Below the pieces are notes generated by a model. That model did not search any database and was not told the DNA's origin. It saw only the letters and a program-made list of their open reading frames with translations. From assembly GCF_988243305.1 (NCBI RefSeq), contig NZ_OZ547136.1: a DNA stretch of 64,000 nt, one strand, 5' to 3'. Shown in pieces: positions 1,495 to 8,025 of the stretch. Each line of letters starts with the position of its first letter. Within the stretch, counting starts at the first letter, position 1. A program made the translations under genes and the position numbers.

Positions 1495-1616
1495 GATTTC
1501 GTCCTTTTTAAGGTGGTTATTTACACCTTAGCGCAAAGCGGACGTGGTTCCTACTGGAGTGCGCATAACGAACACAAGCACTTCCCGTGGATAAATTGAA
1601 AACGAAAGATCAAAAA

Positions 1617-1706
1617 AAAAGCCAGCACCCGGCTGGCTAAGTAATACTGGAAGCAATGTGAGCAATGTCGTGCTTTCAGGTTCTCCGCGAGGGTCTTCCT
1701 GATCGC
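1617..1706 (-). ncRNA. ryhB: RyhB small RNA (Fur-repressed iron-sparing sRNA)
   Basis: Minus strand reads GCGATCAGGAAGACCCTCGCGGAGAACCTGAAAGCACGACATTGCTCACATTGCTTCCAGTATTACTTAGCCAGCCGGGTGCTGGCTTTT, matching the recalled RyhB sequence; ends in a GC hairpin plus T9 terminator; sits between yhhX and yhhY as in K-12. Confidence 0.9.
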
Positions 1707-3730: not shown

Positions 3731-4221
3731 TGACTAAGACCCAAATAAATAAATTAAAAAAAATGATGAATGATTTAGACTATCCATTTGAAGCACCGCT
3801 TAAGGAATCATTTATTGAAAGTATAATCCAAATAGAATTTAATTCTAATTCAACTAATTGCCTGGAGAAGTTATGTAATGAAGTTAGTATTCTTTTTAAG
3901 AATCAACCTGATTATCTTACTTTTTTAAGAGCAATGGATGGATTCGAAGCTAATGGATTACGATTATTTAGCCTCTCGATTCCAGAACCTTCAGTTAAAA
4001 ACCTTTTTGCCGTAAATGAATTTTATAGAAATAATGATGATTTCATAAACCCTGATCTACAAGAACGGTTAGTGATCGGTGATGATAGCATTTCAATATT
4101 TACTTATGACATTAAAAATAACTTTTTTGAAATTAGAGATAATATTGGCACCGAAAATATATTCAGTTCGTTTAGTGATTTCTCTTCATTCTTAAACGAA
4201 ATCATGGACAGTTGTTCATAA
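3727..4221 (+). CDS. yrhA: Putative cognate immunity protein, translationally coupled to yhhZ
   Basis: 164-aa ORF overlapping the yhhZ stop (ATGA); AT-rich; intact here, whereas the K-12 locus is recalled to be interrupted by IS1. Confidence 0.6.
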   Translation: MMTKTQINKLKKMMNDLDYPFEAPLKESFIESIIQIEFNSNSTNCLEKLCNEVSILFKNQPDYLTFLRAMDGFEANGLRLFSLSIPEPSVKNLFAVNEFYRNNDDFINPDLQERLVIGDDSISIFTYDIKNNFFEIRDNIGTENIFSSFSDFSSFLNEIMDSCS

Positions 4222-4670
4222 TAATCAAAAGATAACAAAAATCATTGTAAACCATGCCATCTTTTTAGAGATTACCAGCAGAAAATTCCTTGTTCGAAAC
4301 TTAGCAATGCAAGCTATGGAAAAACTTACAACGGAACTACACTCCTTAAGTGAGATGGACCGAAGACATGTAATCTCTATTTTAGCCGAAATAGCTAATG
4401 GCTATGATGATTTTAGTGACATGTTGATTTAGTTAGAATTTCACCCGAATCATAAGATTCTGATATCTTAAATAAGAAAATCCCGTTCGACGTTCTGAAA
4501 AAGAAATCACAAAATATTAGCAGATACTTATTTCGTGACTGTATATTATCCGATGAACTTTTTTCAAAACTAGCATTTAATAATATCTTTGACGAAGATG
4601 AACGCGTCTTTGCTCAAAGTATAACGCAGGAATAATAATATAACGTTCAACAATAATATTTATTATAATT

Positions 4671-4992: not shown

Positions 4993-6735
4993 TTAATACC
5001 CCGCCGTTAAATCATCCACCGAGCGCGGATCGGATGCACCGTACAGCTCACCGTCCGGCCCAACCATAATGCTTTGTGTACTGCCCATCGCCTCTTTCAG
5101 CGCCACTTTCTGACCTTTTGCTTCCAGCAGCTTGAGCGTATCCGGGCTAAACCCTTTTTCGACACGCAGCTCGTCCGGCAACCACTGATGGTGGAAACGC
5201 GGTGCATTGGTCGCTTCGGCGACATTCATACCATAATCGATGCTGTTCACCACCATTTGCAGCACGGTAGTGATAATCCGGCTCCCGCCAGGGCTACCGG
5301 TAACCAGCCAGGTTTTACCGTCTTTCACCACAATGGTTGGGGACATCGACGACAGCGGGCGTTTATTCGGCCCGACCGCGTTGGCGTCACCACCCACCAG
5401 CCCGTAAACGTTCGGTACGCCAGGTTTGGCGGAGAAATCATCCATTTGGTTATTAAGCAGAATACCGCTCTCGCCCGCGACAATGCCCGTCCCGAAGGTG
5501 GTGTTCAGCGTATAGGTCACCGCTACCGCGTTGCCGTCTTTATCCACCACTGAGTAATGGGTAGTTTGATTACTCTCATAAGGCGCAAGCTTGCCGGGGC
5601 GAATTTCGCTGGATGGCTTCGCTTTATTGATATCGATTTGATCGGCAATAGATTTGGCATAGGCTTTATTGGTCAGCGCCTGCCACGGAACTTTGACAAA
5701 ATCCGGGTCGCCAAGATATTCCGAGCGGTCGGCGTAGGCATATTTCTCAGCTTCTGCCATGATTTGCATCGCGTCGGCGCTGCCAAAGCCGTATTTCTTC
5801 ATATCGAAGTTTTCCAGAATATTGAGGATTTGTACGATATGGATCCCGCCGGAAGATGGCGGTGGCATGGAGTAAACCTGATACCCGCGATAATCGCCGC
5901 TTATTGGTGTGCGCTCGACCGCTTTATACGCCGCTAAATCTTCTTTCGTGATCAGGCCGCCGTTTTTCTGCATCTCCTGAGCGATCTGCTCCGCTATTGT
6001 GCCTTTATAGAATTCGTCCGGGCCATTTTCGGCAATCATCTCCAGGCTCTTTGCCAGGTTCGCCTGCACCAGTTTGTCGCCCTTTTTCAGCGGCTCGCCC
6101 TCTTTCCAGAAGATAGCCTTGCTGTTTTCGTGATTCGGCAACACTTCGCTACCGTAGGTTTTGAGATCGTCAGCCAACGCGTCGTTAACGATAAAACCAT
6201 CGCGTGCCAGTTTAAACGCTGGCTGCACCACTTTGTTTAACGGCATGGTGCCGTATTTATCCAACGCCAGCGAGAAACCTGCTACCGTACCGGGCGTACC
6301 AGAAGCCAGATGCGAAGTGAGTGATTTTTTGCTGTCCGGGTTACCCTGATCATCAAGGAACATATCGCGGGTCGCTTTGGCGGGTGCCATTTCGCGGAAA
6401 TCGATAGCGGTGGTATTGCCATTTTTCGAGCGGATTAACATAAAACCACCACCGCCCAGATTCCCTGCCTGCGGATGCGTTACCGCCAGCGCGTAGCCCA
6501 CCGCCACGGCGGCATCAACGGCATTCCCACCCTCCTTGAGGATATCCACGCCCACCTGAGTGGCAGTAGCATCTACAGACGCCACCATCCCCTGTTTCGC
6601 GCGTACCGGATGGAAGACATCTTCCTCCACGCCATAAGAAACAGGTGGCGGAGGAGGCGCGGCGGCGGCGCTAAAACAACTTCCTGAGAGCAGAGCAGCA
6701 ATGGCCACCCGGCGTAAAAACGTCGGTTTTATCAT
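4993..6735 (-). CDS. ggt: Gamma-glutamyltranspeptidase
   Basis: ORF 4993..6762; start placed at MIKPTFLRR (580 aa) as in E. coli Ggt; signal peptide present. Confidence 0.95.
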   Translation of the reverse strand: MIKPTFLRRVAIAALLSGSCFSAAAAPPPPPVSYGVEEDVFHPVRAKQGMVASVDATATQVGVDILKEGGNAVDAAVAVGYALAVTHPQAGNLGGGGFMLIRSKNGNTTAIDFREMAPAKATRDMFLDDQGNPDSKKSLTSHLASGTPGTVAGFSLALDKYGTMPLNKVVQPAFKLARDGFIVNDALADDLKTYGSEVLPNHENSKAIFWKEGEPLKKGDKLVQANLAKSLEMIAENGPDEFYKGTIAEQIAQEMQKNGGLITKEDLAAYKAVERTPISGDYRGYQVYSMPPPSSGGIHIVQILNILENFDMKKYGFGSADAMQIMAEAEKYAYADRSEYLGDPDFVKVPWQALTNKAYAKSIADQIDINKAKPSSEIRPGKLAPYESNQTTHYSVVDKDGNAVAVTYTLNTTFGTGIVAGESGILLNNQMDDFSAKPGVPNVYGLVGGDANAVGPNKRPLSSMSPTIVVKDGKTWLVTGSPGGSRIITTVLQMVVNSIDYGMNVAEATNAPRFHHQWLPDELRVEKGFSPDTLKLLEAKGQKVALKEAMGSTQSIMVGPDGELYGASDPRSVDDLTAGY

Positions 6736-6854
6736 CGTTATTCTCCAGAGATTAAGGGGCAACCCCAGCTAAGCCTGGTATATAACTCTGAATTAATCCT
6801 GATGATTGCAGGAAAGGAGTAAACTTAAAGAATATCTTCAGAGGAGGATACGCG

Positions 6855-7295
6855 ATGAAACGACTTCTGATTCTTACGGCACTCCTGCCGTTTGTCGGCT
6901 TTGCACAGCCCATTAATACTCTGAACAACCCTAACCAGCCGGGGTATCAGATCCCCAGTCAGCAGCGGATGCAAACCCAGATGCAAACGCAGCAAATCCA
7001 GCAAAAAGGGATGCTGAATCAGCAACTGAAAACGCAAACTCAGTTGCAACAACAGCATTTAGAAAACCAGATAAACAATAATTCACAGCGGGTGTTGCAG
7101 TCACAGCCGGGGGAGCGAAATCCCGCCCGGCAGCAAATGCTGCCCAACACCAACGGCGGGATGTTAAACAGCAACCGTAATCCGGATAGTTCGTTGAATC
7201 AGCAGCATATGCTGCCGGAGAGGAGAAACGGCGACATGCTGAATCAGCCCGGCACGCCGCAGCCTGATATACCGTTGAAAACTATTGGGCCGTAA
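6855..7295 (+). CDS. yhhA: Secreted Gln/Asn-rich protein YhhA (DUF2756)
   Basis: 146 aa with an N-terminal signal peptide and a low-complexity Q/N-rich body; 14-bp overlap with the convergent ugpQ. Confidence 0.85.
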
Positions 7296-8025
7296 AGTTC
7301 GGACCAATCACGTCAATCGCATCGGTGCAGATGCAATCCACGCCCCAGCGCAGCAACTCTGCCGCGCGCTGGGGTTTATTGACGGTATAAACCAGAATCC
7401 GTAATCCGGCGTCTTTCAACTGCATCACTCGCGCTTTATCGAGCAACTTATGATTGAGATGAATAGAGACGCAGCCCAGCCGCGCGGTCAGTTCTCGCCA
7501 GTCGTCGCGCCACTCATCAAGCAATAAACCGCGCGGCAGTTCTGGTACTGCTTGTTGCGCGGCTTCTAAAGCATCAATCTCAAACGATGACAGCAGCGGC
7601 GGCGTCATATCGGCCCACAGTTCGCGTGCCGCCAGCGCCACCATTTTGCCCGTTAATGGCCCGGTGCCAGTGGTAGGTTTGATTTCGATATTCGCCATCA
7701 TCCCGTGTTCGCGACAGCGTTCCGCCACCTGCGAAAGCAACGGCAGCGGCTCACCTTTAAACGCTTTGCTGTACCAACTGCCCGCATCCACGCGCAGTAA
7801 ATCCTGCCAGTTCAGTTCACCCGCGACGCCCCAGCCGTTGCTGGTACGTTCAAGATTGTCGTCATGGAGCAGGAAGATCTCGCCATCTTTCGATAACTTC
7901 GCGTCAAATTCGATCATCTTATGACCGTATTTTGCCCCAACGTCGATTGCCGCCAGGGTGTTTTCCGGGGCCAGCTTACCGCCACCACGATGAGCGACGA
8001 TGCGGGGATAAGGCCAGTTACTCAT
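7282..8025 (-). CDS. ugpQ: Glycerophosphodiester phosphodiesterase
   Basis: 247-aa ORF matching UgpQ; last gene of the ugp operon. Confidence 0.95.

Follow-up and report, generated by a model that had tools for sequence, protein, structure and literature searches.

The window analysed here, a stretch of 64,000 nucleotides, carries between ggt and ugpQ a small open reading frame whose product has an unusually high content of glutamine and asparagine. Two questions arise from this locus, namely whether such a reading frame represents a genuine gene that is selected for its sequence, and, if so, which role the encoded protein could play in the cell.

Identity and genomic context of yhhA

Profile comparisons identified the product as YhhA, the name it had already been given in a preliminary description of this DNA. 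The protein matched PF10956 (DUF2756) across the complete profile (positions 1–105 of 105) with 202.9 bits and an E-value of 1.1e-60, above the gathering score of 21 bits, and PRK10350, the NCBIfam equivalog of YhhA, across positions 1–145 of 145 with 264.6 bits and an E-value of 1.9e-79 (curated cut-off 136 bits). No Pfam family other than DUF2756 matched YhhA. Compared to b3448 of E. coli K-12, 145 of 146 residues are identical, with G133S as the sole substitution; the window allele carries glycine at this position, whereas most E. coli carry serine, and the window protein is otherwise in substance the YhhA of DUF2756/PRK10350. YhhA is the founding member of this family (PF10956; PRK10350).

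In a megablast search with positions 6700–7400, the locus was recovered from 5424 of 5426 complete E. coli genomes, in which the gene flanked by ggt and ugpQ carries the RefSeq annotation yhhA, “DUF2756 family protein”. The window allele is nearest to O157:H7 strains (99.3%), while the divergence from K-12 amounts to about 4% for the whole ggt–ugpQ region and about 2% for yhhA. Profile matches, species-wide annotation and dN/dS values well below 1 (see below) show that yhhA is a real gene and no chance open reading frame, and it belongs to the core genes of Escherichia and related genera. The features of the locus are as follows:

4993–6735, minus strand: ggt (gamma-glutamyltranspeptidase), the divergent neighbour, with a 119-nt spacer common to ggt and yhhA
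6820–6828, plus strand: conserved block TAAACTTAA, a putative −10 element of sigma-S type for yhhA transcription
6843–6847, plus strand: Shine-Dalgarno sequence GGAGG, 7 nt upstream of the yhhA ATG
6855–7295, plus strand: yhhA coding sequence (146 amino acids plus stop, ATG start, TAA stop; DUF2756 family)
6855–6905, plus strand: putative Sec signal peptide of YhhA by its sequence features, residues 1–17, predicted cleavage between GFA and QP
6906–6953, plus strand: conserved N-terminal motif of mature YhhA, beginning with QP, residues 18–33
6954–7100, plus strand: Gln-rich alpha-helix predicted in the AlphaFold2 (AF2) model, residues 34–82, where conservation within the family is highest
7113–7292, plus strand: disordered Pro/Asn-rich tail, residues 87–146, pLDDT < 50, with conserved Met-Leu motifs and a C-terminal motif
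7282–7295, both strands: 14-nt overlap of the convergent yhhA and ugpQ coding sequences
7282–8025, minus strand: ugpQ (glycerophosphodiester phosphodiesterase), the convergent neighbour
7343–7380, plus strand: GC-rich hairpin CCCCAGCGC...GCGCTGGGG followed by TTTATT, a weak candidate for the yhhA terminator, 48 nt past the yhhA stop and inside ugpQ

The overlap of the yhhA 3′ end with the convergent ugpQ had been noted before and is indeed present, since the ugpQ reading frame on the minus strand ends at 7282. Elsewhere in the window, RyhB lies at 1613–1677.

Family range and synteny

A word-indexed search of 5.8 billion proteins returned 467 relatives, and PF10956 was found in 120 of the 120 matches listed; the named relatives among these derive from Escherichia, Salmonella, Citrobacter, Enterobacter, Yokenella, Phytobacter, Buttiauxella, Kosakonia and others. 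Among 1.84 billion cluster representatives, a search with the profile gave 80 hits, mostly fragments or short forms and DUF2756-like among the sequences listed, and it revealed no link of DUF2756 to another family. At least one weak profile match (P0194) is a repetitive sequence that looks unrelated. When one genome per species was scanned with a pattern across 100,044 species, 126 loci were obtained; the loci listed belong by title to Enterobacteriaceae, apart from MAGs and one “Chryseobacterium”. The latter assembly contains an enterobacterial yhhA locus and is mislabelled. Members were also found in Lelliottia, Kosakonia, Buttiauxella and Erwinia. Judging from these searches, the YhhA family is confined to Enterobacteriaceae and Erwiniaceae.

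Short relatives of 87–110 amino acids, among them those of Erwinia psidii, Erwinia sp. and Apirhabdus, have kept the signal peptide, the motif NN-x-NQPGY-NPSQQRMQ, the Gln-rich stretch and QRVLxSQPG, but the tail is absent. The flanking genes ggt and ugpQ were found on either side of yhhA in 78 of 80 species loci, and neither is present beside the homolog at one locus (L080). Of two distant short forms, P0158 and P0188, one is located between gamma-glutamyltranspeptidase and GDPD genes and the other adjoins a GDPD gene on a contig that ends before its other flank would be visible. One homolog resides in a prophage-like block that contains neither ggt nor ugpQ. Comparison with PHROGs gave no meaningful match for E. 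coli YhhA, Rz-like spanins included, and the weak spanin match of the prophage-borne homolog P0173 (E 4e-4) is probably an effect of its Gln-rich composition; a spanin assignment was therefore rejected.

Export and composition

The N-terminus of YhhA shows the order typical of a signal peptide, with the positively charged n-region MKR, a 13-residue hydrophobic core and the small residues G-F-A at −3/−1, followed by QP; A17, Q18 and P19 are 87–98% conserved. These features agree with the signal peptide proposed earlier, and by the n-, h- and c-region rules YhhA is predicted to be exported via Sec. Since the protein has no cysteine, the signal would be of the signal-peptidase-I type and YhhA no lipoprotein. 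The signal peptide, together with proteomics of surface/periplasm-enriched extracts (see below), points to a periplasmic location.

The translated reading frame includes the Q/N-rich string quoted in the preliminary description, and this composition is rare among local proteins: glutamine and asparagine make up 32% of the whole protein, while the 76 open reading frames of at least 120 amino acids found in the window have a median of 8.1% and the runner-up reaches 17%. In the mature protein (129 amino acids), Q+N reaches 36% (Q 22.5%, N 14.0%), accompanied by 10.9% proline (14 residues), 5.4% methionine and 6.2% glycine; cysteine, phenylalanine and tryptophan are absent, histidine occurs twice, charged residues are few (K+R 10, D+E 6) and the GRAVY value is −1.40. 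The description of this region as repeats was overstated. There is one tandem of 12 nt (2.1 copies, encoding MQTQ-MQTQ, positions 6968–6992) and one diverged duplication of about 24 amino acids in the tail, with a local score of 40 versus 21.6 ± 4.7 for shuffled sequences (p about 0.005), so that true repetition exists but is modest.

Selection and conservation

Selection was assessed by pairwise Nei–Gojobori dN/dS against 18 species. Values for the whole gene range from 0.05 to 0.25, those for residues 18–85 from 0.01 to 0.11 and those for the tail (residues 86–146) from 0.15 to 0.67, compared to 0.02–0.08 for ggt and 0.05–0.14 for ugpQ. Residues 18–85 are under purifying selection as strong as that acting on the flanking enzymes and do not represent a drifting low-complexity sequence. 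Among Escherichia species, dS of residues 18–85 is high (0.59–0.79), a value resting on few sites; in the comparison with K-12, this high dS is absent, and ggt and ugpQ have diverged further than yhhA.

The constraint can be followed residue by residue in the alignment of 97 sequences. M43 is present in 97 of 97, and P34, S35, Q37, R38, Q40, Q46, Q47, Q49, L54, Q56, Q61, Q66, Q67 and Q72 are 94–99% conserved, followed by Q50 (91%), Q65 (90%), M53 (87%) and M39 (86%). In the N-terminal motif, N21, N24, P26, N27 and Y31 reach 80–94%, the Erwiniaceae short forms included. The tail contains the motifs QQMLPN (residues 93–98), GGMLN (101–105), QHMLP (117–121) and GDMLN (126–130), of which GGMLN, QHMLP and G[DS]MLN are kept across genera wherever a tail exists; M103, M119 and M128 occur in 78–85% of the 97 sequences, i.e. 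in nearly all tail-bearing ones. Residues 34–82 are conserved position by position, which is unlike the evolution of a purely compositional disordered region, and the constraint on YhhA is sequence-specific, going beyond the mere upkeep of composition.

Rare E. coli variants of 96–165 amino acids carry in-frame deletions or duplications within residues 39–116, with both ends invariant. As the predicted helix is affected too, the segment tolerates such changes and the exact helix length is dispensable. Phase variation was rejected as an explanation of the length differences, because the variants are rare and the 441-nt allele was found in 39 of 39 evenly sampled complete genomes.

Predicted structure and the question of aggregation

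An AF2 model of YhhA based on a 23-sequence alignment reached a mean pLDDT of 59.9 and a pTM of 0.24, with one continuous helix across residues 34–82 (pLDDT 74–85) and values below 50 for residues 87–145. The suggestion that the protein is intrinsically disordered is thus supported for the tail, but the most Q-rich part is spanned by the predicted helix. Fourier analysis of residues 36–82 gave no indication of a coiled coil, with the power at 3.5 residues being no higher than in shuffled sequences (hydropathy p 0.87, conservation p 0.86); the periodicity signals of the helix are weak and lie at 3.7 and 3.3, corresponding to a weak amphipathic pattern. The search for related solved structures returned only a chance-level match to RIB43A (E = 3).

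The composition led to the earlier suggestion of an aggregation-prone secreted polypeptide. In a fuller form of this idea, YhhA would be prion-like or amyloid-forming, with self-assembly of its Q/N-rich segment taking place in the periplasm or on the cell surface. The Michelitsch-Weissman census is said to apply a threshold of at least 30 Q/N per 80 consecutive residues, and YhhA lies above it with 36 Q/N in residues 21–100, its best 80 residues; a 50-residue stretch (residues 35–84) is free of proline and contains 25 Q/N, and the protein has been found in surface protein extracts. Nevertheless, we consider prion-like assembly quite unlikely. The segment in question is predicted to be helical at moderate confidence, mature YhhA contains its 14 prolines, the heptad pattern required for a polar-zipper coiled coil is missing, and prion-like domains depend on composition over order, so that strict position-specific conservation is atypical for them. 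We also modelled residues 18–90 as a tandem of two copies, with a Gly/Ser linker of 30 residues between them and a paired alignment of 22 sequences. This model was less confident than the full-length monomer in pLDDT (48.4, compared to 59.9), had a pTM of 0.31 (0.24 for the monomer) and showed no packed dimer; this comparison, made without a scrambled control, lends no support to self-association. With Q/N-rich prion-like domains such as that of Clostridium botulinum Rho, YhhA shares a Q/N density above the threshold and few charges, whereas its export, its many prolines outside the helix, its predicted helicity and its conserved sequence set it apart.

A related and still less probable idea is that YhhA reversibly self-assembles at stationary-phase entry or during drying, and that the resulting condensate, gel or polar-zipper fibre shields the envelope. 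The Q/N density, the proline-free Gln-rich stretch and the abundance of YhhA in stationary-phase extracts are compatible with this idea, while the predicted helix, the strict conservation and the tandem model speak against it. If it were true, YhhA would join a small number of prion-like or phase-separating stress proteins in bacteria and would be the first of them in the periplasm.

Expression and promoter

The possibility that the reading frame is not expressed, which the preliminary description had named as the point that would speak against it, is contradicted by detection of the protein by mass spectrometry in three independent studies and by stress induction of the mRNA in several transcriptomes. 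YhhA was detected in surface/periplasm-enriched extracts of STEC in stationary phase, which also contained small stress proteins of the periplasm (PMC9731836), in ESBL E. coli under antibiotic stress (PMC9927464), and in Salmonella, with an 8.8-fold decrease inside lettuce (PMC4265081). At the transcript level, yhhA increases 2.5-fold together with rpoS as O157:H7 passes into stationary phase (PMC2241611), 5.6- and 9.9-fold upon treatment with a LolCDE inhibitor (PMC5105897), and also upon acid treatment (PMC2270276, PMC7824302). It was further described as a hub that is up-regulated by multiple stresses, oxidative stress among them, and that clusters with rpoS (PMC9501238).

Genomic SELEX placed a site of the sigma-S holoenzyme in the ggt/yhhA spacer (PMC5493296). 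Our alignment of this spacer across 16 genera showed an invariant TAAACT and a nearly invariant TAA, as well as a purine-rich GGAG/GAGG block at the position of the yhhA Shine-Dalgarno sequence in 16 of 16 genera. The extended −10 consensus of sigma-S is TATACTTAA. The TAAACTTAA block resembles it and may represent the −10 element of the yhhA promoter. A sigma-70 consensus scan found no promoter. The gene is transcribed from the ggt–yhhA spacer, to which sigma-S RNA polymerase binds, and a strong ribosome-binding site serves its translation.

This regulation also bears on a 2018 preprint (10.1101/364117), which counts YhhA among the type III secretion effectors of pathogenic E. coli and has it mimic ATM-kinase substrates. 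yhhA is co-regulated with the general stress response and not with virulence genes, it is a chromosomal core gene in K-12, in nearly all E. coli genomes searched and in many non-pathogenic genera, and the protein sequence carries a Sec signal of the classical, cleavable type. The S/TQ motifs are expected by chance at 22% Gln. An effector role is highly improbable, and we rejected YhhA as an effector because it is not restricted to pathogens bearing a type III secretion system and carries a cleavable Sec signal.

The 3′ end and antisense overlap with ugpQ

The coding sequences of yhhA and ugpQ overlap by 4–23 nt in 71 of 79 species loci, most commonly by 4 or 14 nt. As there is no room for a terminator between the two genes, transcription of yhhA would run on in antisense orientation and enter the ugp operon from its 3′ side, independently of the YhhA protein. 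In E. coli MG1655, RNA-seq listed yhhA–ugpQ among 165 convergent “excludons”, present in at least 50% of 58 transcriptomes (PMC12288877). The locus resembles other convergent excludons in that the stop regions overlap and a transcript overlap has been reported in MG1655; by its 14-nt coding overlap and this listing, it belongs to the class defined by overlapping convergent transcripts.

The consensus scan found no intrinsic terminator on the plus strand after the yhhA stop and did not call the hairpin at 7343–7380. The region 7270–7420 has a fold z of −3.6 and the hairpin itself (7343–7374) folds well; its stem is kept in 20 genera, yet without covariation, and this conservation is accounted for by the ugpQ codons. 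The hairpin could mark the end of yhhA transcripts.

These observations raise the question whether the main role of the locus is played at the RNA level, with sigma-S-driven antisense transcription of yhhA lowering expression of ugpQ and the ugp operon in stationary phase and the protein being secondary. The conserved overlap, the junction into which no terminator fits and the recurrent listing in the MG1655 “excludome” all speak for such a role. On the other hand, a transcript overlap is trivially expected where stop codons overlap, and the hairpin with its U-tract could halt read-through after about 85 nt. Moreover, strong purifying selection on the YhhA sequence and the fact that the protein is made indicate that the coding function matters. 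We therefore regard a primary RNA-level role as unlikely.

A proposed role in the periplasm

Our preferred reading, held tentatively and at somewhat less than even confidence, is that YhhA is a general-stress periplasmic binder, with a holdase or shield and a dedicated adaptor taken together as one class. The 17-residue signal peptide would take the protein via Sec to the periplasm. The mature protein would consist of a conserved 70-residue module, made up of the Asn/Pro-rich motif and the long Gln-rich helix, followed by a faster-evolving disordered tail. Alone, YhhA would be largely unfolded and would act by binding other envelope proteins, serving either to protect them in the manner of a holdase or shield or as the adaptor of a single conserved partner; the Gln-rich segment may become helical upon binding, and the four Met-Leu motifs of the tail may serve as hydrophobic contact points. 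This reading builds on the sigma-S site and stress induction of yhhA, the signal-peptide features, the AF2 model, the specific constraint on residues 18–85 and the hydrophilin-like bulk properties. Against it stand the rare variants with indels inside the helix and the weak amphipathic periodicity, and neither a related solved structure nor a Pfam family other than DUF2756 was found that would point to an activity.

Two known groups of proteins provide points of comparison. Hydrophilins are, according to the definition attributed to Garay-Arroyo et al. from 2000, said to have more than 6% glycine and a mean hydrophilicity above 1. The composition of mature YhhA lies within these limits, although its glycine content barely passes. 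Like the desiccation-protective disordered proteins DtpA and DtpB of Acinetobacter baumannii (PMC10732645), YhhA is small, hydrophilic and above 6% glycine, largely disordered by prediction, and induced in stationary phase by stress regulators. It differs from hydrophilins in being Gln/Asn-rich, almost uncharged, exported and conserved by position, and it has no sequence homology to them.

The second group comprises CpxP, Spy and ZraP (LTXXQ), which are also small, helical, periplasmic and stress-induced, the helix and the location of YhhA being predicted; ZraP and Spy were found in the same proteomic fractions as YhhA (PMC9731836, PMC4265081). In contrast to this group, YhhA appears from published data to be regulated by sigma-S and not by Cpx/Bae, and a single predicted helix with a disordered tail stands in place of the helical hairpin cradle. 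No match of YhhA to the LTXXQ family was obtained in Pfam at E ≤ 1.

Within the class of periplasmic binders, a non-specific shield would not usually show such strong conservation by position, and a single dedicated partner fits better. In its strict form, this would make YhhA a dedicated adaptor or regulator whose N-terminal module binds and modulates one specific conserved envelope protein, with no general protective role, an alternative that we regard as doubtful. Conservation by position extends to all faces of the predicted helix, dN/dS is as low as in enzymes, and the tailless short forms of Erwiniaceae have retained the module. The conserved ggt–yhhA–ugpQ order, with neighbours partly seen even for the distant P0158 and P0188, could be taken in the same direction, but high synteny is general among Enterobacterales core genes and proves no functional link, and neither the homolog in the prophage context nor L080 has these two neighbours. 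The literature yielded no interaction data for YhhA. Ggt is a candidate partner in this adaptor model solely by its periplasmic location and by the spacer from which ggt and yhhA are divergently transcribed.

The six conserved methionines allow for another function, in which they would be sacrificed to oxidants and restored by the methionine sulfoxide reductase of the periplasm, or would serve as soft-metal (Cu+/Ag+) ligands like those of disordered periplasmic metal sponges. The methionine content of the mature protein, the conservation of M43, M53, M39, M103, M119 and M128 and the induction of yhhA by oxidative and other stresses are consistent with it. Nonetheless, methionine always stands beside leucine in fixed motifs (GMLN, HMLP), which look like hydrophobic contacts and not like metal sites; the protein has just two histidines and no cysteine, it shows no similarity to known metal-binding families, and the literature provided no indication of copper or silver regulation of yhhA. 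We consider a methionine-based function very unlikely, and return to a periplasmic binder as the reading we favour.

Significance

yhhA, its family and its regulation included, is already catalogued, so that as a finding of a genome scan it adds nothing new and is no discovery. It is firmly established that yhhA is real, expressed, conserved and stress-induced and that it encodes a small Gln/Asn-rich protein with a predicted export signal. What our analysis adds is a sharper picture, in which the Gln-rich region emerges as a conserved and probably helical module, held by purifying selection of the strength seen in enzymes, and in which the restriction of the family to Enterobacteriaceae and Erwiniaceae, the adjacency to ugpQ and the stop-to-stop overlap conserved across genera become apparent. 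YhhA is among the remaining E. coli genes without a known function, even though it is nearly universal in the species, conserved and made as a protein. Its role, once known, would supply a piece of how the cell envelope survives stationary phase.

Divergence of the ggt-yhhA-ugpQ locus

Across positions 4993-8025, the locus was compared with its K-12 counterpart, from which ggt diverges by 4.4% and ugpQ by 4.0%, values that are unusually high among E. coli core genes, while yhhA, lying between them, differs by only about 2%. The nearest relatives of the window allele are found in O157:H7 strains.

Within yhhA, divergence is unevenly distributed. In comparisons with three loci from other Escherichia species (L003, L007 and L026), the synonymous divergence (dS) of the Gln-rich residues 18-85 was estimated, from few sites, at 0.59-0.79, i.e. 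two- to fivefold that of the tail (residues 86-146; 0.11-0.27) and also above the 0.23-0.42 of the flanking genes. The nonsynonymous divergence (dN) of residues 18-85 is very low in the same three loci. The high dS of this region may arise from frequent switching between CAA and CAG.

The spacer between ggt and yhhA shows 11 differences from K-12, 10 of which are confined to 18 nt at 6799-6816, immediately upstream of the conserved TAAACT block, part of a candidate sigma-S-type -10 element of yhhA. In the spacer alignment, this variant is common to the window and E. albertii, and an alternative form of the segment is present in E. whittamii and the remaining aligned genera. This distribution suggests that a small patch in the promoter spacer was recombined or replaced.

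Exceptions to the conserved gene order

A megablast search of 5426 complete E. coli genomes with positions 6700-7400 gave no match whatever to the yhhA locus in two of them. In the complete genome of the otter strain A16 (NZ_CP028758.1, 4498179-4498386), the match is limited to nt 1-208 of yhhA, and the gene appears to be truncated or interrupted there.

Outside E. coli, Intestinirhabdus alba (L080) is among the rare exceptions to the conserved ggt-yhhA-ugpQ synteny: neither ggt nor ugpQ was detected within 4 kb on each side of its yhhA homolog (4001-4390). Unlike other members of the DUF2756 family, which almost always adjoin ugpQ, one homolog of 87 amino acids (P0173; L084, 4001-4264) is located in a prophage-like block together with terminase, portal and capsid genes. 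Its weak PHROG matches to Rz-like spanins (E 4e-4) are probably compositional.

A typical enterobacterial ggt-yhhA-ugpQ locus was also found under the title “Chryseobacterium sp. 18061” (CACSKA010000004.1), with 88% (Ggt) and 86% (UgpQ) identity to the window. This assembly is nearly identical to “Citrobacter sp. 18056”, which belongs to the same project, and is probably mislabelled or contaminated.

RNA elements and putative terminators

The following elements were identified:

1613-1677, minus strand: RyhB small RNA gene (Rfam match, 83 bits, E 4e-14)
7024-7012, minus strand: terminator-like hairpin TGCTGATTCAGCA followed by a T-run, antisense to yhhA
7343-7380, plus strand: GC-rich hairpin CCCCAGCGC...GCGCTGGGG, then TTTATT, inside ugpQ and 48 nt 3' of the yhhA stop

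RyhB is the sole Rfam family exceeding its gathering score in the entire 64,000-nt window. The minus-strand hairpin, approximately 260 nt past the ugpQ stop, falls in the yhhA codons of the conserved KGMLNQQ motif; transcripts of the ugp operon might end here, with terminator-like sites in the surrounding region numbering as expected by chance.

For the region holding the plus-strand hairpin, a fold z-score of -3.6 was obtained. Its stem, which coincides with the PQR and RWG codons of ugpQ, is kept across the 20 genera compared, among which no covariation was seen in it. This hairpin could be bidirectional, serving yhhA and ugpQ transcripts alike.
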